In this document: piece by piece, positions 49,923 through 57,366 of the stretch
Position numbering within the stretch: position 1 is the stretch's first letter
Layout: the number at the start of each line of letters is the position of its first letter
From: Escherichia coli
GTDB taxonomy: Bacteria > Pseudomonadota > Gammaproteobacteria > Enterobacterales > Enterobacteriaceae
Strand: one strand, 5' to 3'
Length of the DNA: 64,000 nt
Assembly (NCBI RefSeq): GCF_003334765.1
Contig: NZ_QOWT01000001.1
Translations under genes and position numbers: made by a program
The notes under the pieces: model-generated
Told to the model about the DNA's origin: nothing
Seen by the model: only the letters and a program-made list of their open reading frames with translations
Database searches by the model: none

Positions 49923-50116
49923 AGTGCGCAGATCCGGATAGATGTGTAGATGATGCATGAGCAGAAATGGGCAATGAAACACGGGCGACTATTTTGCGGC
50001 AAAAGAGGCCAGCCGCAAAAGCAGTGCGTGCTTTAAGAGATAAAAAAACGTGACACTGTAACCTATTATTGCCGGATTGCGCGTAATCGTCACCATCCGG
50101 CAATATTACGGTGATC

Positions 50117-50731
50117 CTATCGAAACAGCGGTTTAACCGCGACAGGAATTAACAGTTGTGATTGCCATTGCGCCAGCGTTAAGCGAGCCAGTTCACCCAG
50201 TGCACGGTAGAAAGGGTGTTCTGCTTTTTCGATAAAAACATCAAGAAAACGTGTTGACCACGGAAAAAGGTGCCATGCCAGCAATTCTTCGCATTCTGTC
50301 TGGCGACCATTCTCCGCCAACCACGCAGCCATCAACAGCAGTGAACCAAAATGATCTTCCGGTTCGTTTTGCTTCATTTCAAACTGAATGCCTTTCTCGC
50401 GCATCCACTGACGAAGTGCCAATGTTGAATCGCCAAACAGCACAGATTCGCGATCCAGCCAGACCGACCCCCACGGCGGAGACGGCAGTGCCCACGGGCC
50501 GACAAACAAACGCTGCCAGGCCTGGGCGTGAGTCTCTTCACACTGTGTCTGAAAAGCCGTCACCAGCGGCGCTAATGACGCTTCTGGTAGAGGCCACTGA
50601 GTTTCCCAGCCGTCACTGGTGAGTACCGCAACCAGAGGTGCGGCTTCCGCACTCTCTGGAGCGTAATAAAACAGCGCGCCCAACACGCGCGCCGCGACAG
50701 AAAAATTATCTTGCTGTGAAAAATGGGTCAT
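50117..50731 (-). CDS. dmsD: Tat proofreading chaperone DmsD
   Basis: ORF track gives 207 aa; trimmed to MTHFSQQDNFSVAARVLGALFYYAPES... (204 aa); TorD/DmsD family. Confidence 0.9.
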   Translation of the reverse strand: MTHFSQQDNFSVAARVLGALFYYAPESAEAAPLVAVLTSDGWETQWPLPEASLAPLVTAFQTQCEETHAQAWQRLFVGPWALPSPPWGSVWLDRESVLFGDSTLALRQWMREKGIQFEMKQNEPEDHFGSLLLMAAWLAENGRQTECEELLAWHLFPWSTRFLDVFIEKAEHPFYRALGELARLTLAQWQSQLLIPVAVKPLFR

Positions 50732-50773
50732 TCCTAACATCCTGAAATGTGCGGGTTGCCCCGCACCAATTTG

Positions 50774-51628
50774 TTAACCTGCAATAGCCATTCCTACTGT
50801 CATGTGCAGGCCATAAAAGAGCACACGCCCGATCATCTCACCGCCAAGTATGAGGATTAGCCCCAGAATAAGTCCGGCAACGTGAGGTTCACGGCGACGA
50901 ATGAGCGGGCAAAGCCAGCATCCAAGACCTGCGCATAACAATACCACACGCCAGACCTGTAAGGAGGCGTAATCTGGTACCAGTGCGCTGGCTTGTTGCA
51001 CGGATGAGTGAATAGACGCCAGAGACAAACCTTGCAGCACAATCACCCCGGCACAAGCGATCAGCGCCAGAACGCTAATGATGGCAAATGGTGTGGTATT
51101 AAATGTAACGCGAGCTGCCCGCAGAATTGCGGCAGCAAGTATTGGACCGCTCAACAATACCGTCAGGAAGAAAGCCAGCGTAGTGTAACCGTTATGCCAG
51201 GTTGGCACGGTGTCGATTTGATACACGCAGGTCATCATCCAGACGAAAATGACGCCGAGCGCCATGCTGAAAAGTAACCAGAGTTTCCCCAACGCTTGCG
51301 GCATTTTACCGATGACTGCCACCAGCCACCATAATCCGCCAACGGCAAAAAATATGGAACCGGCAGCAATCTCGTTACTCAGACCAGAAGCTCCGATTCG
51401 ATTCAGCGAGTTAAACGCCCGCAGTGGCGATCCCAGGTGCATGACAGAGGCAATAAACCCGACGCCCATCAACAGCCAGAGGAAAAACATGCCACGGACA
51501 ATACGCTGACGGTCTGCGTCATTTTTGGCGGCGAACCAGCCAATTCCGCTAACAATCAGCGCGCCTACTACGCATTGACCCAATACGGTAAAGATAACCA
51601 GTGGCCACTCATGCCATCCATTTCCCAT
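50774..51628 (-). CDS. ynfH: DmsC-type membrane anchor subunit of S-/N-oxide reductase
   Basis: ORF track gives 364 aa; trimmed to MGNGWHEWPLVIFTVLGQCVVGALIVSG... (284 aa), 8 TM segments. Confidence 0.88.
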   Translation of the reverse strand: MGNGWHEWPLVIFTVLGQCVVGALIVSGIGWFAAKNDADRQRIVRGMFFLWLLMGVGFIASVMHLGSPLRAFNSLNRIGASGLSNEIAAGSIFFAVGGLWWLVAVIGKMPQALGKLWLLFSMALGVIFVWMMTCVYQIDTVPTWHNGYTTLAFFLTVLLSGPILAAAILRAARVTFNTTPFAIISVLALIACAGVIVLQGLSLASIHSSVQQASALVPDYASLQVWRVVLLCAGLGCWLCPLIRRREPHVAGLILGLILILGGEMIGRVLFYGLHMTVGMAIAG

Positions 51629-51629
51629 T

Positions 51630-52247
51630 TTACACTTCCTCCGGATTAGCCAGATAACCAGTGGTATCGCCGGTCGGGCGGCTGTTGGCGTTAGGTTTGA
51701 TAACGATATTGGGTTTTGTGAAATGCGCGCGCGGCAGTGGCGCGACGGCAGCAAGAGTGCCGTGCTTCTGGCGCAGCTCTTCAATTGGACCGAACTCAAG
51801 TGCACGCAGCGGGCAGGATTCGACACATATGGGTTGTTTCCCCTCGGCGACGCGCGAATAACAACCATCGCACTTCGTCATGTGCCCTTTTTCAGCATTG
51901 TACTGTGGCGCGCCGTACGGACAAGCCATGTGGCAGTAGCGGCAGCCGATACAAACATCTTCATCAACCACCACAAAGCCATCTTCACGCTTATGCATTG
52001 CGCCGCTGGGGCAGACTTTTGTACATGCGGGGTCATCGCAATGGTTACAGGAGATGGAGAGATAATAAGCGAACACGTTCTGGTGCCAGACGCCATTATC
52101 TTCCTGCCAGTCGCCGCCAGCGTATTCATAAATACGGCGGAAACTGACTTCCGGGCCAAGATCTTTAAAATCTTTGCACGCCAGTTCGCAGGTTTTACAG
52201 CCAGTACAGCGGCTGGAATCGATAAAAAATCCATATTGTGTGGTCAT
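51630..52247 (-). CDS. ynfG: DmsB-type 4x[4Fe-4S] ferredoxin subunit
   Basis: 205 aa, four Cys clusters (CTGCKTCELACKD, CNHCDDPACTKVCP, CIGCRYCHMACP, CDGCYSRV...CVESCP). Confidence 0.92.
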   Translation of the reverse strand: MTTQYGFFIDSSRCTGCKTCELACKDFKDLGPEVSFRRIYEYAGGDWQEDNGVWHQNVFAYYLSISCNHCDDPACTKVCPSGAMHKREDGFVVVDEDVCIGCRYCHMACPYGAPQYNAEKGHMTKCDGCYSRVAEGKQPICVESCPLRALEFGPIEELRQKHGTLAAVAPLPRAHFTKPNIVIKPNANSRPTGDTTGYLANPEEV

Positions 52248-52257
52248 GGGCTACTCC

Positions 52258-54681
52258 TTAAACCTTTTCGATCTGGACAAGATTGCTGTGCGACGGGTTT
52301 CCCTTTGCCAGCGGTGAAGGGCGGTGAGAGGTCAGAATATTGATACTGCCGCCGTGATCGACCCGGTCACCAAACATATCCGCTTTAAGCCACGCACCTT
52401 GCCCGATGGCGGTAACGCCAGGCAGAATACGCGGAGTCACTTTTGCGGCAATCAGCATTTCTCCATTATTGTTAAATACCCGCACGGTATCGCCATGACG
52501 GATACCGCGTGCCTGAGCATCAATGGGGTTGATCCACACCTCTTGTGGGCAGGCCTGCTGTAACACATCAATATTGCCGTAGCTGGAGTGGGTACGCGCT
52601 TTGTAATGGAAGCCCGTTAACTGCAGTGGATAGGTTTTCCGCAGGGGATCGTCCCAGCCATCAAAACCTGGGGTATACGCAGGAAGGGGATGAATAATTT
52701 CATCTTTTTTCAATTCCCAGGTATCTGCAATCTTCGCCAGTCGTTCAGAATAAATTTCGATTTTCCCCGAAGGTGTTTTCAACGGGTTTGCCTGTGGATC
52801 TTCACGGAATGCGCGGAAAGCGACGTAGTGTTCTTCCGGGCATTTTTTCTTAAAGATCCCGGTCGTTTTCATCTCCTCGTAGTCGGGCATCTCAGGGTTA
52901 CGTTCCTTCGTTTTCGCATGGAGATATTTGATCCATTCATGCTGACTGCGACCTTCAGTAAAGGTTTGATAAACGTCTGGTCCTAAGCGTTTGGCGACTT
53001 CACTCAGCATCCAGTAGATGGGTTTGCGTTCAAATTTTGCTGAGGTTGCGGGTTGGGCGAGGATCACATAGCCCATATTCCCTGCAGATTCATGAGAGAT
53101 AAGGTCTTCTTGCTCTGTTGGCATCAGGTCGGGCAACAGGATATCGCAATACTTAGCCGAGGCCGTCATGAAGTGGTCAATGCCAACAATCATCTCGCAC
53201 TTGCTGTCATCCTGAAGCACCTCATGGGTGTGATTGATGTCGCCATGTTGATTGATCAATGTGTTACTGGCGTAGCACCATAAAAACTTGATGGGGACAT
53301 CCAGTTTTTCTTTTCCACGAACACCATCACGGGTCGCGGTCATTTCCGTACCATGGTCGATGGCATCTGTCCATGTAAAGACGGAAATCTGCGTTTTAAC
53401 AGGATTCTCGAGCATCGGGAACCATTCTACCCCCAGATCCCAGCTACCTTCGCGTACGCCTGAGTTGCCGCCGTTTATGCCGACGTTGCCGGTGAGAACG
53501 GAAAGCATGGCAATAGCGCGGGATGTTTGCTCGCCGTTGGAATGTCGTTGTGGCCCCCAACCCTGACAAATATAAGCAGGTTTTGCTGAACCGATCTCTC
53601 GTGCCAACTGGATAATTTTTTCTGCCGGGATGCTGGTGATTTTTGCTGCCCATTCCGGCGTTTTAGCTATGCCGTCAGGCCCTTCGCCCAGAATATAGGC
53701 TTTATAATGCGCGTTACGTGGTGCGTTGGCGGGCAGCGTTTTTTCATCGTAACCAACACAATATTTGTCGAGAAATGGCTGATCGACCATGTTTTCAGTA
53801 ATCAGTACCCAGGCAATCGCACAGGCCAGTGCGCCATCGGTGCCAGGGCGAATGGGCAGCCATTCATCTTCACGCCCGGCAGCAGTGTCGTTATAACGTG
53901 GATCGATGACGATCATGCGTGCGTTTGAACGTTCGCGGGCTTGCTCGACGTAGTAAGTGACACCACCGCCGCTCATCCGCGTTTCTGCCGGGTTATTTCC
54001 GAACATAACGACCAGTTTCGTATTGGCGATATCATCCGGGCTGTTGCCATCATTGGCACCGAACATATAACTCATTGCGGCACTGATCTGTGCGGTACTG
54101 TAGCTGCCATAGCGACTGAGAAAACCACCGCAAGAGTTCATCAGACGGTACGGGACGTTTGAGTTGGTGATGTTTCCGCCATCTACGCCTGTTCCGTACA
54201 GGACATGTACAGCCTCATTGCCGTAATCTTTCAGGATCCGCCGAAGATTATCACTGATGGTATCCAGGGCTTCGTCCCAACTTATCCGTTCAAATTTACC
54301 TTCACCGCGCTTGCCGACGCGCTTCATGGGATATTTCAACCTATCAGGATGATTCATCCGTCGGCGGATAGAGCGCCCGCGTAAACACGCTCGAACCTGA
54401 TGATTACCGTAGACGTCGTCACCTGTCGTATCAGACTCCACCCAGTACACGGTGTCATCTTTCACATGCAAACGTAACAGACAGCGGCTCCCGCAGTTAA
54501 CGGTGCAGGAACTCCAGACCGCTTTCTCTTCTACCGGAGCCTCTGCCGCCCGGACCATTTGGGAAAATGGCAGAGTGAAAGCACTGCTTGCCAGCGCAAG
54601 ACTGCCAAGTGCGGAGGTTTTCATCAGACTTCTACGGCTGATTTCAGCCTTCATGAGCGCCTCTGTGGTATGGATTTTCAT
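52258..54681 (-). CDS. ynfF: molybdopterin (bis-MGD) S-/N-oxide reductase catalytic subunit, DmsA paralogue
   Basis: About 807 aa; Tat signal ISRRSLMKTSALGSLALASSAF; N-terminal Cys cluster CTVNCGSRCLLRLHV; alternative start one codon upstream at 54684. Confidence 0.9.
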   Translation of the reverse strand: MKIHTTEALMKAEISRRSLMKTSALGSLALASSAFTLPFSQMVRAAEAPVEEKAVWSSCTVNCGSRCLLRLHVKDDTVYWVESDTTGDDVYGNHQVRACLRGRSIRRRMNHPDRLKYPMKRVGKRGEGKFERISWDEALDTISDNLRRILKDYGNEAVHVLYGTGVDGGNITNSNVPYRLMNSCGGFLSRYGSYSTAQISAAMSYMFGANDGNSPDDIANTKLVVMFGNNPAETRMSGGGVTYYVEQARERSNARMIVIDPRYNDTAAGREDEWLPIRPGTDGALACAIAWVLITENMVDQPFLDKYCVGYDEKTLPANAPRNAHYKAYILGEGPDGIAKTPEWAAKITSIPAEKIIQLAREIGSAKPAYICQGWGPQRHSNGEQTSRAIAMLSVLTGNVGINGGNSGVREGSWDLGVEWFPMLENPVKTQISVFTWTDAIDHGTEMTATRDGVRGKEKLDVPIKFLWCYASNTLINQHGDINHTHEVLQDDSKCEMIVGIDHFMTASAKYCDILLPDLMPTEQEDLISHESAGNMGYVILAQPATSAKFERKPIYWMLSEVAKRLGPDVYQTFTEGRSQHEWIKYLHAKTKERNPEMPDYEEMKTTGIFKKKCPEEHYVAFRAFREDPQANPLKTPSGKIEIYSERLAKIADTWELKKDEIIHPLPAYTPGFDGWDDPLRKTYPLQLTGFHYKARTHSSYGNIDVLQQACPQEVWINPIDAQARGIRHGDTVRVFNNNGEMLIAAKVTPRILPGVTAIGQGAWLKADMFGDRVDHGGSINILTSHRPSPLAKGNPSHSNLVQIEKV

Positions 54682-54741
54682 CATTACTCACTTATTGCTT
54701 TTCAAACAAAATGTCATGCCAGAATTTATGGTTGTCGTGGG

Positions 54742-57168
54742 TTATATTTTTTCGATCTCGACCAGATTAGTGTGCTGCGGGTTTCCCTTCGCCAGTGGTG
54801 AAGGGCGCAGAGTGGTTAGCGTATTCACACAGCCGCCATGGTCGATTTTATCGCCAGACATATTGGCCTCGTGCCAGGCTCCCTGGCCCATAGCGCTAAC
54901 TCCAGGGAGAATACGTGGTGTTACTTTGGCTGGTAGCCGAACTTCGCCACGATGGTTAAACACCCGCACCATATCGCCGTTGGCAATCCCACGTTTCTGC
55001 GCATCTATAGGGTTGATCCACACCTCCTGACGGCAGGCAGCCTTCAGGAGATCAATATTGCCGTAGGTCGAGTGAGTACGGGATTTGTAATGGAAACCAA
55101 ACAGTTGCAGTGGGAAGGTTCTACGTTCAGGGGAGTTCCAGCCTTCAAAGGTTGAGGCATAAACTGGCAATGGGCTTATCACTTCATCTTTTTCCAGTTC
55201 CCAGGTACGGGCAATTTCCGCCAGCCTGCTGGAATAAATTTCAATCTTACCGGAAGGCGTTTTAAGTGGATTTGCCTCGGGGTCGTCACGAAATGCTTTG
55301 TAGGCGACAAAATGGCCATTGGGATCTTTACGCTTATAGATACCCATTTTTTTCAGTTCGTCGTAAGACGGTAACGCCGGATCTTTGGCAAGCATTTTGG
55401 CGTACAGATGTTGTAACCATTGTTCCTGCGTGCGACCTTCTGTGAACTTTTGATAGACGTCAGGTCCAAGACGTTTCGCGACTTCACTCAGGATCCAGTA
55501 AATCGGTTTGCGTTCGAATTTTTCGCTGGTGACAGGCTGGAGGAAAATGAGATATCCCATGTTACCGGCGTAGTCGTTAGGAATAATATCTTCCTGCTCA
55601 ACGGTCATCAGGTCTGGCAGCAGAATGTCGGCATATTTTGCCGATGAGGTCATAAAGTTTTCGATGACCACAATCATTTCGCATTTCGATTCGTCCTGCA
55701 GAATTTCATGCGTTTTGTTGATGTCAGAATGCTGATTAACGAGGGTATTTCCCGCGTAGTTCCAGATGAACTTAATGGGCACATCCAGTTTATCTTTGCC
55801 GCGGACGCCGTCGCGGATTGCCGTCATTTGCGGACCATGATCGATAGCATCTGTCCAGCTGAAGCAGGAGATTGACGTTTTGACCGGATTATCCAGCACC
55901 GGCAGGCGTTCTATGGTAATGGTATAGGTCGATTCACGCGCGCCACTATTTCCGCCGCTGATGCCGACATTGCCCGTCAAAATAGGTAACATAGCAATAG
56001 CGCGTGCAGTCAGTTCGCCGTTTGCCTGGCGTTGTGGCCCCCAGCCCTGGCAGATATAAGCGGGTTTTGCTGTGCCAATTTCACGCGCCAGTTTGATGAT
56101 ACGGTCCTCCGGGATACCGGTAATTTGCGAAGCCCACTGCGGCGTTTTCGCTGTTTTATCGTCACCTTCACCAAGAATATAGGCTTTATAGTGACCATTT
56201 TTGGGTGCATCTGCGGGTAAGGTTTTTTCGTCATAGCCGACGCAGTATTTATCGAGAAAAGGTTGATCAACGAGATTTTCGTTAATCAATACCCAGGCAA
56301 TACCCGCAACCAGCGCGGCATCGGTGCCCGGGCGAATAGGGAGCCATTCGTCTTCACGACCGGCAGCCGTATCGGTATATCGCGGATCGATAACAATCAT
56401 TTTGGCGTTCGATTTCTCGCGCGCTTTTTCAAGAAGATAAGTGATGCCACCACCGCTCATGCGGGTTTCTGCCGGGTTGTTACCAAACATCACGACCAGC
56501 TTGCTGTTTTCAATATCCGTGGTGCTGTTGCCATCATTACTGCCGTAGGTGTAGGGCATGGCACAGGAAATTTGCGCAGTGCTGTAGGAGCCATACTGGT
56601 TGAGTGAACCGCCGTAGCAGTTCATCAGGCGTTTGACCGCCGAGGCTGATGGCGAAGAGCGGGTCATATTGCCGCCAACGATCCCCGAAGAGTACTGAAT
56701 ATATACAGCCTCATTGCCATATTGTTCGACGGTTTTCTTCAGGCTACTGGCGATAGTATCCAGGGCTTCATCCCAGCTAATCCGTTCGAATTTGCCTTCG
56801 CCGCGTTTGCCCACGCGTTTCATTGGGTAATTCAAGCGATCGGGATGATTAATACGCCGGCGGATGGAGCGACCGCGCAAACAGGCGCGTACCTGATGGT
56901 TGCCGTACTCATCGCTGCCGGTATTGTCAGTTTCCACCCAGGTCACTTCATTATCTTTAACATGTAGACGAAGTGCACAGCGGCTACCACAGTTGACGGA
57001 ACAGGCACCCCAGACCACTTTTTCGCGGGCCTGTTGTACCGCTGCTGCTGCATTGCGCAGGGTAAACGGCAAAGAAAAACCGCCTGCAGCCAGCGCCAGA
57101 GAACCTATCGCGGTAGATTTAACGAGTGTTCTGCGGCTGATGCCCACCATTCGTTCATTTTTGGACAT
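54742..57168 (-). CDS. ynfE: molybdopterin (bis-MGD) S-/N-oxide reductase catalytic subunit, DmsA paralogue
   Basis: 808 aa; Tat signal GISRRTLVKSTAIGSLALAAGGF; Cys cluster CSVNCGSRCALRLHV; colinear paralogue of ynfF. Confidence 0.9.
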   Translation of the reverse strand: MSKNERMVGISRRTLVKSTAIGSLALAAGGFSLPFTLRNAAAAVQQAREKVVWGACSVNCGSRCALRLHVKDNEVTWVETDNTGSDEYGNHQVRACLRGRSIRRRINHPDRLNYPMKRVGKRGEGKFERISWDEALDTIASSLKKTVEQYGNEAVYIQYSSGIVGGNMTRSSPSASAVKRLMNCYGGSLNQYGSYSTAQISCAMPYTYGSNDGNSTTDIENSKLVVMFGNNPAETRMSGGGITYLLEKAREKSNAKMIVIDPRYTDTAAGREDEWLPIRPGTDAALVAGIAWVLINENLVDQPFLDKYCVGYDEKTLPADAPKNGHYKAYILGEGDDKTAKTPQWASQITGIPEDRIIKLAREIGTAKPAYICQGWGPQRQANGELTARAIAMLPILTGNVGISGGNSGARESTYTITIERLPVLDNPVKTSISCFSWTDAIDHGPQMTAIRDGVRGKDKLDVPIKFIWNYAGNTLVNQHSDINKTHEILQDESKCEMIVVIENFMTSSAKYADILLPDLMTVEQEDIIPNDYAGNMGYLIFLQPVTSEKFERKPIYWILSEVAKRLGPDVYQKFTEGRTQEQWLQHLYAKMLAKDPALPSYDELKKMGIYKRKDPNGHFVAYKAFRDDPEANPLKTPSGKIEIYSSRLAEIARTWELEKDEVISPLPVYASTFEGWNSPERRTFPLQLFGFHYKSRTHSTYGNIDLLKAACRQEVWINPIDAQKRGIANGDMVRVFNHRGEVRLPAKVTPRILPGVSAMGQGAWHEANMSGDKIDHGGCVNTLTTLRPSPLAKGNPQHTNLVEIEKI

Positions 57169-57267
57169 AACTCACTCCCTGTTCTTTATCGTTATATAAA
57201 AGTTTATATATTGAATATTTAGCGCGCTAACAATAGAGGGAGTCTACCCATTTTGGGTTAAGAATTA

Positions 57268-57281
57268 TTAATCCATATCAA
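57268..57281 (-). promoter_or_regulatory. candidate FNR-type site upstream of ynfE
   Basis: Minus strand reads TTGATatggATTAA (9/10 match to TTGAT-N4-ATCAA), about 100 bp upstream of the ynfE start; function inferred only. Confidence 0.3.
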
Positions 57282-57366
57282 TAGAAGGGTATGAGTAATA
57301 AGGTGGGATTATGTTGTATGTTCAAATCGCCGGATTTGTCATATCCGGCGTTCAGTCGATAATGTG

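Follow-up and report, generated by a model that had tools for sequence, protein, structure and literature searches.

Old paralogues in a shared operon: the tandem ynfE and ynfF genes of Escherichia coli ynfEFGH-dmsD

The ynfEFGH-dmsD locus of Escherichia coli carries two genes for catalytic subunits of the same family, lying head to tail and followed by single copies of the genes for their partners. Such an arrangement raises the question of whether the pair is a young tandem duplicate, whose copies still exchange sequence and may be confused during assembly, or a couple of old paralogues, each with a history of its own.

A known operon and its components

The window analysed here is a 64-kb stretch of E. 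coli DNA, and the locus under study is already known: it is the textbook K-12 ynfEFGH-dmsD operon (ynfEFGHI), the same locus as in Salmonella, and nothing in the window differs from it. Its DNA is 100% identical to that of E. coli K-12 MG1655, W3110 and E. coli C. The locus was found in 5,421 of the 5,426 complete E. coli genomes, and the 4,911-bp two-gene arrangement is present at a coverage of at least 80% in 5,127 complete genomes. Gene order and coordinates agree exactly with the RefSeq annotation, and with NCBIfam, for ynfE, ynfF, ynfG, ynfH and dmsD (Table 1). The gene identities and operon structure proposed by the first-pass annotation are thus confirmed, including the two catalytic reading frames of about 808 residues and the single copies of ynfG, ynfH and dmsD behind them. 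YnfF would also reach 808 residues if translated from an in-frame ATG at 54684.

Table 1. Features of the ynfEFGH-dmsD region, with positions in the window
Feature	Position	Strand	Basis
ynfE, catalytic subunit, 808 aa, operon gene 1	54742..57168	minus	ORF, RefSeq, NCBIfam NF041885, Pfam
ynfF, second catalytic subunit, 807 aa as annotated	52258..54681	minus	ORF, RefSeq, NCBIfam NF041884, Pfam
ynfE-ynfF spacer, 57 nt, containing the ynfF ribosome-binding region	54685..54741	minus	sequence
ynfG, four-cluster ferredoxin-type electron-transfer subunit, 205 aa	51630..52247	minus	TIGR02951
ynfH, membrane anchor and quinol-oxidising subunit, 284 aa	50774..51628	minus	Pfam DmsC PF04976
dmsD, Tat proofreading chaperone, 204 aa	50117..50731	minus	NF008632, RefSeq annotation
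FNR-like inverted repeat TTGATATGGATTAA, promoter region upstream of ynfE	57268..57281	minus	exact TTGAT-N4-ATYAA
RyhB-complementary stretch overlapping the ynfF start region	54682..54700	minus	duplex prediction
YnfE twin-arginine motif SRRTLVK, aa 11-17	57118..57138	minus	motif inspection
YnfF twin-arginine motif SRRSLMK, aa 15-21	54619..54639	minus	motif inspection
YnfE Cys group C56-x3-C60-x3-C64-x31-C96, predicted [4Fe-4S] site FS0	56881..57003	minus	inside Molybdop_Fe4S4, aa 49-108
YnfF Cys group C59-x3-C63-x3-C67-x31-C99	54385..54507	minus	inside Molybdop_Fe4S4, aa 52-111
YnfE Ser196, motif Y-S-[TS]-A-Q-I	56581..56583	minus	aligns with DmsA precursor Ser205
14-nt run AACCCGGCAGAAAC in ynfE, fusion crossover site	56465..56478	minus	identical to ynfF 53981-53994
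Partner copy of the 14-nt run AACCCGGCAGAAAC in ynfF	53981..53994	minus	sequence identity

Assignment of the two catalytic subunits relied on whole-protein scores, a member being expected to exceed the curated cut-off of its own model and to stay below those of the sister models in the DmsA/YnfE/YnfF subfamily (TIGR02166). YnfE scores 1796 bits on NF041885 (cut-off 1675), as against 1475 bits on the YnfF model (cut-off 1650) and 1343 bits on the DmsA model (cut-off 1600). For YnfF, the score is 1775 bits on NF041884 (cut-off 1650), as against 1483 bits on the YnfE model (cut-off 1675) and 1321 bits on the DmsA model (cut-off 1600). In both proteins Pfam recognises, in this order, Molybdop_Fe4S4, Molybdopterin and Molydop_binding (E = 1e-12 to 4e-69). 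Both also carry the twin-arginine signal and the N-terminal Cys cluster that had been noted in the first place, and a hydrophobic stretch follows the twin-arginine motif in each. The Pfam TAT_signal model gives a weak match to YnfF (E = 0.14) and none to YnfE; Tat dependence and DmsD binding of the YnfE signal peptide have been published for the Salmonella orthologue (PMC5203670).

The Cys group of DmsA resembles those of YnfE and YnfF but has a 32-residue spacer instead of the 31-residue one. YnfE Ser196, and likewise YnfF Ser195, aligns with Ser205 of the DmsA precursor, which we take to be the Mo ligand called Ser176 in the older numbering of DmsA, and the surrounding Y-S-[TS]-A-Q-I motif is invariant across all 48 aligned YnfE, YnfF and DmsA sequences. 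A PDB sequence search returned no YnfE, YnfF or DmsA structure among its matches, the nearest being Rhodobacter DMSO reductase, TMAO reductases and polysulfide/thiosulfate reductase.

The neighbouring genes complete a DmsABC-type operon, with an Fe-S subunit (YnfG, 264.8 bits on TIGR02951, cut-off 214), a DmsC-type anchor (YnfH, E = 4.7e-128 for PF04976) and the DmsD chaperone (347 bits on NF008632, cut-off 162) adjoining the catalytic genes. DmsABC itself has the same three-subunit design, Pfam domains, Tat signal type, chaperone DmsD and Y-S-x-A-Q-I motif, with protein identities of 94% between YnfG and DmsB, 57% between YnfH and DmsC, and 66-67% between YnfE or YnfF and DmsA. It differs in lying at a separate locus, in having one catalytic gene and no dmsD, and in its substrate, the one reported for Ynf in the literature being selenate/tellurate and not DMSO. 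The 94% identity of YnfG to DmsB suggested gene conversion between ynfG and dmsB, which was rejected because their DNA is 81% identical, with 50% identity at third positions and a dS of about 3.

Transcription of the operon runs along the minus strand, with the promoter lying around 57230-57290. The FNR-like inverted repeat in this region is one of two exact TTGAT-N4-ATYAA matches in the window, for a chance expectation of 0.5. Published reports on ynfEFGH-dmsD describe activation by FNR, bound at -40.5, together with repression by NarL (PMC3688515; PMC6561318), and the box at 57268-57281 is probably this FNR site. A sigma-70 consensus scan of the minus strand upstream of ynfE found no promoter, which fits an activator-dependent promoter and is otherwise little informative. 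Neither a terminator-like nor a promoter-like consensus was seen in the 57-nt spacer between ynfE and ynfF, and terminator-like matches within the operon genes were no better than noise. No clear intrinsic terminator was found 3' of dmsD; a hairpin at about 50077-50108, followed after 15 nt by a T-run, is all that the sequence offers.

ynfF also has a control of its own: repression by the sRNA RyhB has been published for a ynfF(-60..+24)-lacZ fusion (PMC4666370). In the local RyhB:ynfF duplex predicted here, 17 bp form around a 2-nt bulge, at -20.8 kcal/mol as against -17.9 kcal/mol for the corresponding part of ynfE, and the prediction alone thus barely discriminates between the two. This local duplex was used in place of the full-length RyhB prediction, which yielded an over-extended and meaningless structure.

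Divergence of the two catalytic genes

The first-pass annotation had pictured ynfE and ynfF as sharing long stretches of near-identical nucleotide sequence, a similarity that turns out to be overstated. The two genes are 69.9% identical overall, the blocks singled out at 54260-54330 and 56760-56830 are 86% and 83% identical, and the longest exact match is 17 nt, with no k-mer of 18 or more common to both. Chance cannot account for the similarity of the proteins, for which blastp gives 1227 bits and an identity of 70.8% across 801 residues. Third codon positions are 47% identical, with a dS of 2.0-2.1 and a dN/dS of 0.10, and synonymous-codon identity stays level over the whole length (0.32-0.68 in windows of 40 codons). 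Local blocks at 83-90% identity extend over 50-100 nt, the best 100-nt window being 83% identical. In the block at 54260-54330, all ten mismatches fall at third positions and are synonymous, a pattern that marks constraint at the protein level and not recent exchange.

These local blocks, the tandem arrangement in the same orientation (2,484-2,496 nt apart) and the in-register ynfE-ynfF fusions found in other strains would all suit a young duplicate in which gene conversion keeps the copies alike and homologous recombination between them is frequent. Such a history is nevertheless highly improbable in view of the 70% DNA identity, a dS above 2 and the weak conservation of third positions. Quartet tests, in which sites with a conversion pattern were compared with those of a control pattern for E. 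coli against Salmonella, Citrobacter amalonaticus and Pseudocitrobacter, gave 63/62, 67/66, 53/48 and 66/52 sites in four species quartets, that is, no excess attributable to gene conversion, and conversion-pattern sites showed no clustering in these quartets (permutation p = 0.56-0.93). Nucleotide identity between ynfE and ynfF is the same within a genome (0.68-0.70) as between genomes. No converted patch was detected in a screen that covered 10 diverse E. coli alleles, rather than all 5,426 genomes, and adjacent paralogue-type runs did not exceed 2. The YnfE orthologues of Serratia and Budvicia are nearer to E. coli YnfE (80-82% identity) than E. coli YnfF is (71%), and fusions occur in only 0.2% of complete genomes, which speaks against frequent recombination.

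The tufA/tufB genes and the rRNA operons are known duplicates under concerted evolution by gene conversion. Like ynfE and ynfF, they are duplicated genes within one genome with the same kind of product, but they are homogenised, whereas ynfE and ynfF are not, as seen from their equal within- and between-genome identities and saturated synonymous sites. Efficient RecA-dependent exchange in E. coli requires about 23-27 bp of uninterrupted identity, a threshold below which the ynfE/ynfF pair would lie.

Tandem paralogues are in principle able to mislead assemblers, and the two-gene arrangement seen here, or the fusions seen elsewhere, could be imagined to stem from mis-assembly of a repeat. The chance of this is negligible. 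Since ynfE and ynfF have no k-mer of 18 or more in common, they could not be mistaken for one another in a read or a k-mer graph; the same arrangement recurs in 5,127 complete genomes, with 100% identity in MG1655 and W3110, and one of the fusion proteins, of the ECONIH4 type, has the identical sequence on 68 contigs that were assembled independently. The concern about gene conversion and mis-assembly was to be dropped, according to the first-pass annotation itself, if the nucleotide identity of the two genes proved low, and at 70% it does not hold for the window; conversion tracts, looked for in the window comparison, the four quartets and the 10 alleles, were found in none of them.

YnfE, YnfF and DmsA form three separate clades in a neighbour-joining tree (199-200 of 200 bootstraps); this tree has no outgroup, and the order of the E/F/DmsA splits is thus not given by it. 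The distance to DmsA is 0.47 for YnfF versus 0.41 for YnfE, and YnfE orthologues extend to Serratia, Rahnella and Budvicia. A later duplication with a burst of change in YnfF would, strictly speaking, also be compatible with the data. Both genes are under strong purifying selection, with a dN/dS of 0.02-0.035 between orthologues. ynfE and ynfF are therefore old paralogues and not a recent duplicate, and they have evolved independently since before the Escherichia-Salmonella-Citrobacter split. The overall reading of the region, as the K-12 selenate/tellurate reductase operon with two old and independently evolving catalytic genes, is held with great confidence.

Loss and retention of ynfF

ynfF might be a redundant copy on its way to loss, with YnfE alone as the physiological enzyme. 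For Salmonella, the published description is that YnfF 'does not contribute greatly' to the reduction of selenate (PMC5203670). In a pangenome study, both ynfE and ynfF rank among the metabolic genes that most frequently become pseudogenes (PMC13322260). Part of ynfF is missing from about 560 of the 5,426 complete genomes of E. coli, the form with two internal deletions being carried by about 10%; the ST131 strain uk_P46212, for example, has two internal deletions in ynfF and an intact ynfE. E. whittamii and most sampled Enterobacteriaceae have a ynfE-ynfG-ynfH-dmsD operon without ynfF. The srnABCD genes of Enterobacter cloacae SLD1a-1 have this same order and differ from the present operon by the lack of a second catalytic gene; SrnA, a YnfE orthologue with a reported 86% identity to E. 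coli YnfE, complements an E. coli ynfEF deletion mutant (PMC12724226).

Where ynfF is retained, however, it is more conserved than ynfE, with 91-92% versus 87% amino acid identity between E. coli and Salmonella, a dN of 0.054 versus 0.083, and a dN/dS of about 0.02 for ynfF. The gene was kept intact from a time before the divergence of Escherichia, Salmonella and Citrobacter, its sampled carriers besides E. coli being Salmonella, C. amalonaticus and Pseudocitrobacter, and it is under its own RyhB control (PMC4666370). The strong constraint on both genes argues for a role of YnfF of its own, and decay of a redundant copy appears unlikely. In E. whittamii, the end of ynfE joins the ynfG junction exactly as the end of ynfF does in E. 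coli; this state may reflect either a precise deletion at the shared AGATCGAAAA or an ancestral single copy.

Isoenzymes and natural hybrids

The literature and the resemblance to DmsABC together suggest a mechanism. In the absence of oxygen, FNR would switch on transcription of the operon, which nitrate would repress through NarL, and a single transcript would provide two alternative catalytic subunits, with ynfF translation separately controlled in the 57-nt spacer through RyhB. DmsD would hold the twin-arginine signal during insertion of the Mo-bis(pyranopterin guanine dinucleotide) cofactor and of the N-terminal [4Fe-4S] cluster. YnfE or YnfF would then pair with the single YnfG, be exported by the Tat system and dock on the single anchor YnfH. 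Electrons from menaquinol would enter at YnfH, and the periplasmic site would reduce selenate or tellurate, possibly also S- or N-oxides according to published accounts. One transcript, two catalytic subunits and single YnfG and YnfH subunits would therefore make two isoenzymes, YnfE-GH and YnfF-GH, with one common electron-transfer module, as the available reports suggest.

The genetic evidence comes from an E. coli ynfEF deletion mutant, which is unable to reduce selenate, with menaquinone as the electron donor (PMC12724226), and from Salmonella, in which YnfE is dominant in selenate reduction (PMC5203670). Each isoenzyme may be a selenate/tellurate reductase. The first-pass annotation had called the substrate difference between YnfE and YnfF unresolved, in agreement with the literature, which speaks of 'paralogous selenate reductase isoenzymes' (PMC12724226).

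Natural ynfE'-'ynfF hybrids may bear on this difference. An in-register fusion, absent from the window itself, is carried by 10 of the 5,426 complete E. coli genomes and derives from two events; draft assemblies add two further events. Each of the four hybrids measures 2,427 nt and lies between ynfD and ynfG, with 1-14 nt of identity at the junction, and the independent junctions number at least four (at about YnfE residues 231, 342, 385 and 430). WP_104457354.1 and WP_256683566.1 are examples of the hybrid proteins. In the fusion of JCC-EE 7 and CP137696, 724 of 724 informative sites fit a single switch inside the 14-nt run AACCCGGCAGAAAC. A rare in-register deletion at such 1-14 nt microhomologies probably fused a 5' portion of ynfE with a 3' portion of ynfF. 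Two other candidates, AZ191 and FDAARGOS_1285, were set aside as out-of-register deletions, the former joining ynfE nt 834 to ynfF nt 282 and the latter joining ynfE nt 1071 to ynfG. The description of the pair as prone to recombination is weakly supported: four independent junctions exist in other strains, but only these 10 complete genomes carry one. From the sequences, crossovers between these 70%-identical genes seem to recur and to leave full-length hybrids that persist, and these hybrids might be working enzymes, a possibility to which we give slightly less than an even chance.

For the window, the risks of gene conversion and mis-assembly can be dismissed, and the operon is correctly assembled and annotated. 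Damage to ynfF in about one complete genome in ten bears on studies of ynfF expression or of selenate/tellurate reduction in such strains. If the natural hybrids are active, they would be ready-made domain swaps for mapping the differences between YnfE and YnfF, and would suggest that the C-terminal two-thirds of YnfF is compatible with the signal peptide and FS0 domain of YnfE. They may thus be used as probes of substrate specificity.

Operon layout and identity of the gene products

The five genes ynfE to dmsD are consecutive on the minus strand in the ORF listing, and their coordinates in RefSeq are exactly those of the ORFs, with ynfD and clcB as flanks. YnfE and YnfF each have their own curated NCBIfam model, with respective cut-offs of 1675 and 1650; each protein passes its own cut-off only (1796 for YnfE, 1775 for YnfF), the cross-scores of about 1480 lying under both. 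YnfG matches a DmsB-type NCBIfam model, DmsD its own equivalog, and YnfH the Pfam DmsC family over its full length. The Pfam domains Molybdop_Fe4S4, Molybdopterin and Molydop_binding are found in both catalytic subunits, together with a twin-arginine motif (SRRTLVK in YnfE, SRRSLMK in YnfF), a C-x3-C-x3-C-x31-C group and a Y-S-x-A-Q-I motif, invariant across 48 family members, whose Ser aligns with Ser205 of the DmsA precursor. No experimental structure of YnfE, YnfF or DmsA is present among the PDB sequence matches. The gene calls and features listed in the first-pass annotation are therefore correct. By megablast, the segment 50000-57400 is present in 5,421 of 5,426 complete E. coli genomes and is 100% identical to E. 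coli C, as is the ynfEF part to K-12 MG1655 and W3110; the ynfEFGH-dmsD feature is already known.

Features of the ynfE-dmsD region (window coordinates)
Feature	Position	Strand	Remarks
ynfE	54742-57168	-	808 aa; ORF listing and RefSeq annotation
ynfF	52258-54684	-	808 aa from first ATG; 807 aa from annotated ATG at 54681
ynfG	51630-52247	-	205 aa; ORF listing and RefSeq annotation
ynfH	50774-51628	-	284 aa; ORF listing and RefSeq annotation
dmsD	50117-50731	-	204 aa; ORF listing and RefSeq annotation
FNR-like box	57268-57281		TTGATATGGATTAA
Predicted RyhB-pairing stretch	54682-54700		over ynfF start region; 17 bp, -20.8 kcal/mol
ynfF internal deletions of other strains	52340-52613 (274 bp); 53388-53967 (580 bp)		annotated frameshifted pseudogene; locus L082 1501-3070

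Divergence of ynfE and ynfF

Near-identical stretches had been reported for the two paralogues, which as a tandem pair were held to be prone to recombination or gene conversion and to mis-assembly. The identification of the genes stands, but not the near-identity: in a codon-based alignment the proteins are 71% and the genes 69.9% identical (78%, 84% and 47% at codon positions 1, 2 and 3), and the full gene k-mer comparison reveals two common 17-mers, the longest exact matches, and no common 18-mer. The best 100-nt window reaches 83%, the two blocks singled out earlier are 86% and 83% identical, and a repeat finder independently scored the copies at only 70-77%, with a period of 2,484-2,496 nt. 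The 71-nt block 54260-54330, which falls in a run of 24 amino acids common to YnfE and YnfF (PMKRVGKRGEGKFERISWDEALDT), has ten mismatches with its paralogue, all of them synonymous and at third positions. Long protein-level constraint produces such a pattern, which recent DNA exchange would not leave.

Gene conversion was analyzed at several levels. Nei-Gojobori estimates are 0.21 for dN and 2.0-2.1 for dS, which is saturated, and no 40-codon window contains a low-dS tract, since synonymous-codon identity is 0.32-0.68 in all of them. A related-locus scan (one genome per species) returned 80 loci, four of which have the ynfE-ynfF-ynfG-ynfH-dmsD order, in two Salmonella subspecies, C. amalonaticus and Pseudocitrobacter faecalis. 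The E-F nucleotide identity within these genomes (0.68-0.70) equals that between genomes, orthologues being 0.76-0.82 identical. Four-taxon comparisons yield 232-285 sites in favour of orthology; sites with the pattern expected from conversion, in which both copies of a genome agree, number 63, 67, 53 and 66, and those with the control pattern 62, 66, 48 and 52. The conversion-type sites show no clustering (permutation p = 0.56-0.93) and no run of more than 4 informative sites. Ten ynfE and ynfF alleles were also screened; they come from E. coli C, CFT073, an ST131 strain, a soil isolate, SJ7 and an avian isolate. Of the 724 sites that differ between the paralogues, at most 2 in succession have the paralogue's base in these alleles. 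Gene conversion is thus undetectable since the Escherichia/Salmonella split and among the strains of the ten alleles, and the concern about conversion and mis-assembly is dismissed for the window.

In a neighbour-joining tree, 48 catalytic subunits fall into three clades, YnfE, YnfF and DmsA (199-200 of 200 bootstraps). E. coli YnfE shares 80-82% identity with its orthologues from Serratia, Rahnella, Ewingella and Budvicia, but 71% with YnfF; DmsA is 66-67% identical to either YnfE or YnfF. Between E. coli and Salmonella, YnfF (91-92%) is more conserved than YnfE (87%), and dN/dS is 0.02-0.035 for both sets of orthologues. The simplest reading of these sequences is an E/F split at least as old as the Enterobacterales sampled, with later loss of ynfF in most lineages. 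The duplication may also have occurred later and been followed by fast divergence, because the tree has no outgroup and YnfF is slightly farther from DmsA than YnfE (0.47 versus 0.41).

YnfG is 94% identical to DmsB (locus L085, 3415-4032), the neighbouring subunits sharing no more than 57-67% identity with those of DmsABC. Conversion between ynfG and dmsB was rejected, since their DNA is 81% identical with saturated dS, and the likeness is ascribed to constraint. Oddly, E. coli DmsB is a closer match to the YnfG of Salmonella and C. amalonaticus (96-97%) than is E. coli YnfG (92%).

Unequal crossover, loss and rearrangement

Deletions between ynfE and ynfF were searched for with 2.2 kb of each flank joined as one query, which matches at a single place only if the flanks of a genome are less than 2.7 kb apart. 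This query matched fifteen of 5,426 genomes, ten of which carry a single gene, of 2,427 nt, between ynfD and ynfG. In JCC-EE 7 and CP137696, this fusion switches once from ynfE-type to ynfF-type over all 724 informative sites, the crossover falling in a 14-nt identical run (AACCCGGCAGAAAC). ECONIH4 and seven further assemblies have the switch at ynfE nt 1155/1157; this fusion is not an assembly artefact, because exactly the same protein is encoded on 68 contigs (NCBI, ENA, Logan). Its protein cluster includes two more 808-aa hybrids, each alone between ynfD and ynfG, with junctions in a 9-nt run (nt 1021-1029) and a 6-nt run (nt 1288-1293). With the two complete-genome junctions, this makes four independent in-register crossovers, all of which keep the reading frame open. 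The remaining short-gap genomes have out-of-register or IS-associated deletions. Efficient RecA-dependent exchange in E. coli needs at least about 23-27 bp of uninterrupted identity, and exchange between diverged sequences is suppressed by mismatch repair. The 1-14 nt junctions fit rare exchange that is microhomology-dependent or mismatch-tolerant. What stands of the earlier interpretation, besides the identification, is unequal crossover, which is real but rare (0.2% of complete genomes) and found in other genomes; conversion and mis-assembly do not apply here.

The 580-bp internal ynfF segment is absent from 664 of 5,426 genomes, 103 of which lack ynfEF altogether; in an evenly spaced listing, 6 of 60 rows have an intact ynfE and a ynfF with two internal deletions. 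No obvious microhomology is seen at the junction of either deletion (274 and 580 bp). This pseudogene beside an intact ynfE is carried by a large E. coli lineage that makes up about 10% of complete genomes; one such strain, uk_P46212, is ST131 H30-Rx (PMC5369007). Both ynfE and ynfF are among the most often pseudogenised metabolic genes in a 2026 pangenome paper (PMC13322260).

Other rearrangements were observed. In W60 and GPEC1405, ynfE is broken at an identical point (about 55772; locus L083, 6485-9202), followed in W60 by a site-specific integrase and phage-like genes, which suggests that it serves there as the attachment site of a mobile element. MB07152 (L084) has an IS1 in place of ynfE and most of ynfF. 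A genome group from the joined-flank search (H89-H98) has lost ynfE to ynfH (50740-57168) and retains dmsD beside ynfD, which fits the need of DmsA, encoded elsewhere, for DmsD.

Escherichia whittamii (L002, 8890-8960) has no ynfF, and its ynfE end, ...GAGATCGAAAAGGTTTAA GGAGTAGCCC ATG, matches the ynfF-ynfG junction of E. coli exactly; either a precise deletion at the shared AGATCGAAAA or an ancestral single copy could account for this. In the Yersiniaceae Serratia, Rahnella and Ewingella (L069, L070, L072, L073, L075, L077-L079), ynfE is followed not by ynfF but by a dmsA orthologue (81-82% identity to E. coli DmsA), in the order ynfE-dmsA-B-C-dmsD. Budvicia (L081) has ynfE-G-H, then a dmsA-like gene, a second G-H pair and dmsD. 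These arrangements may explain the location of dmsD in the E. coli ynf operon. Many loci of Enterobacter, Lelliottia, Yokenella and Cedecea (L006, L009, L013, L020, L027, L031, L034 and others) have dmsD directly after the ynfE orthologue, with no ynfG or ynfH between them, and this YnfE must either rely on Fe-S and anchor subunits from other loci or function without such partners.

Regulation and proposed sharing of subunits

The operon is activated by FNR and repressed by NarL (PMC3688515; PMC6561318), and a ynfF(-60..+24) fusion is repressed by RyhB (PMC4666370). The ynfE start region GGGAGTGAGTTATG, in the ribosome-binding region 57157-57202, resembles that of ynfF (AAGTGAGTAATG); for it, too, pairing with RyhB is predicted, at -17.9 kcal/mol versus -20.8 for ynfF, such a prediction alone being weak. 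Just past the dmsD stop codon (50040-50108), an inverted repeat TATTGCCGGAT...ATCCGGCAATA with a 17-nt loop precedes a T-run 15 nt beyond it; it may be the operon terminator or a REP-like element, and was not reported by a consensus terminator scan.

DmsD binds the signal peptides of YnfE, YnfF and DmsA, and YnfE is the main selenate reductase of Salmonella (PMC5203670). An E. coli ynfEF deletion mutant does not reduce selenate, and is complemented by SrnA, the single-copy orthologue from Enterobacter (PMC12724226). By analogy with DmsABC, YnfE and YnfF would compete for one YnfG-YnfH module, giving rise to two isoenzymes.
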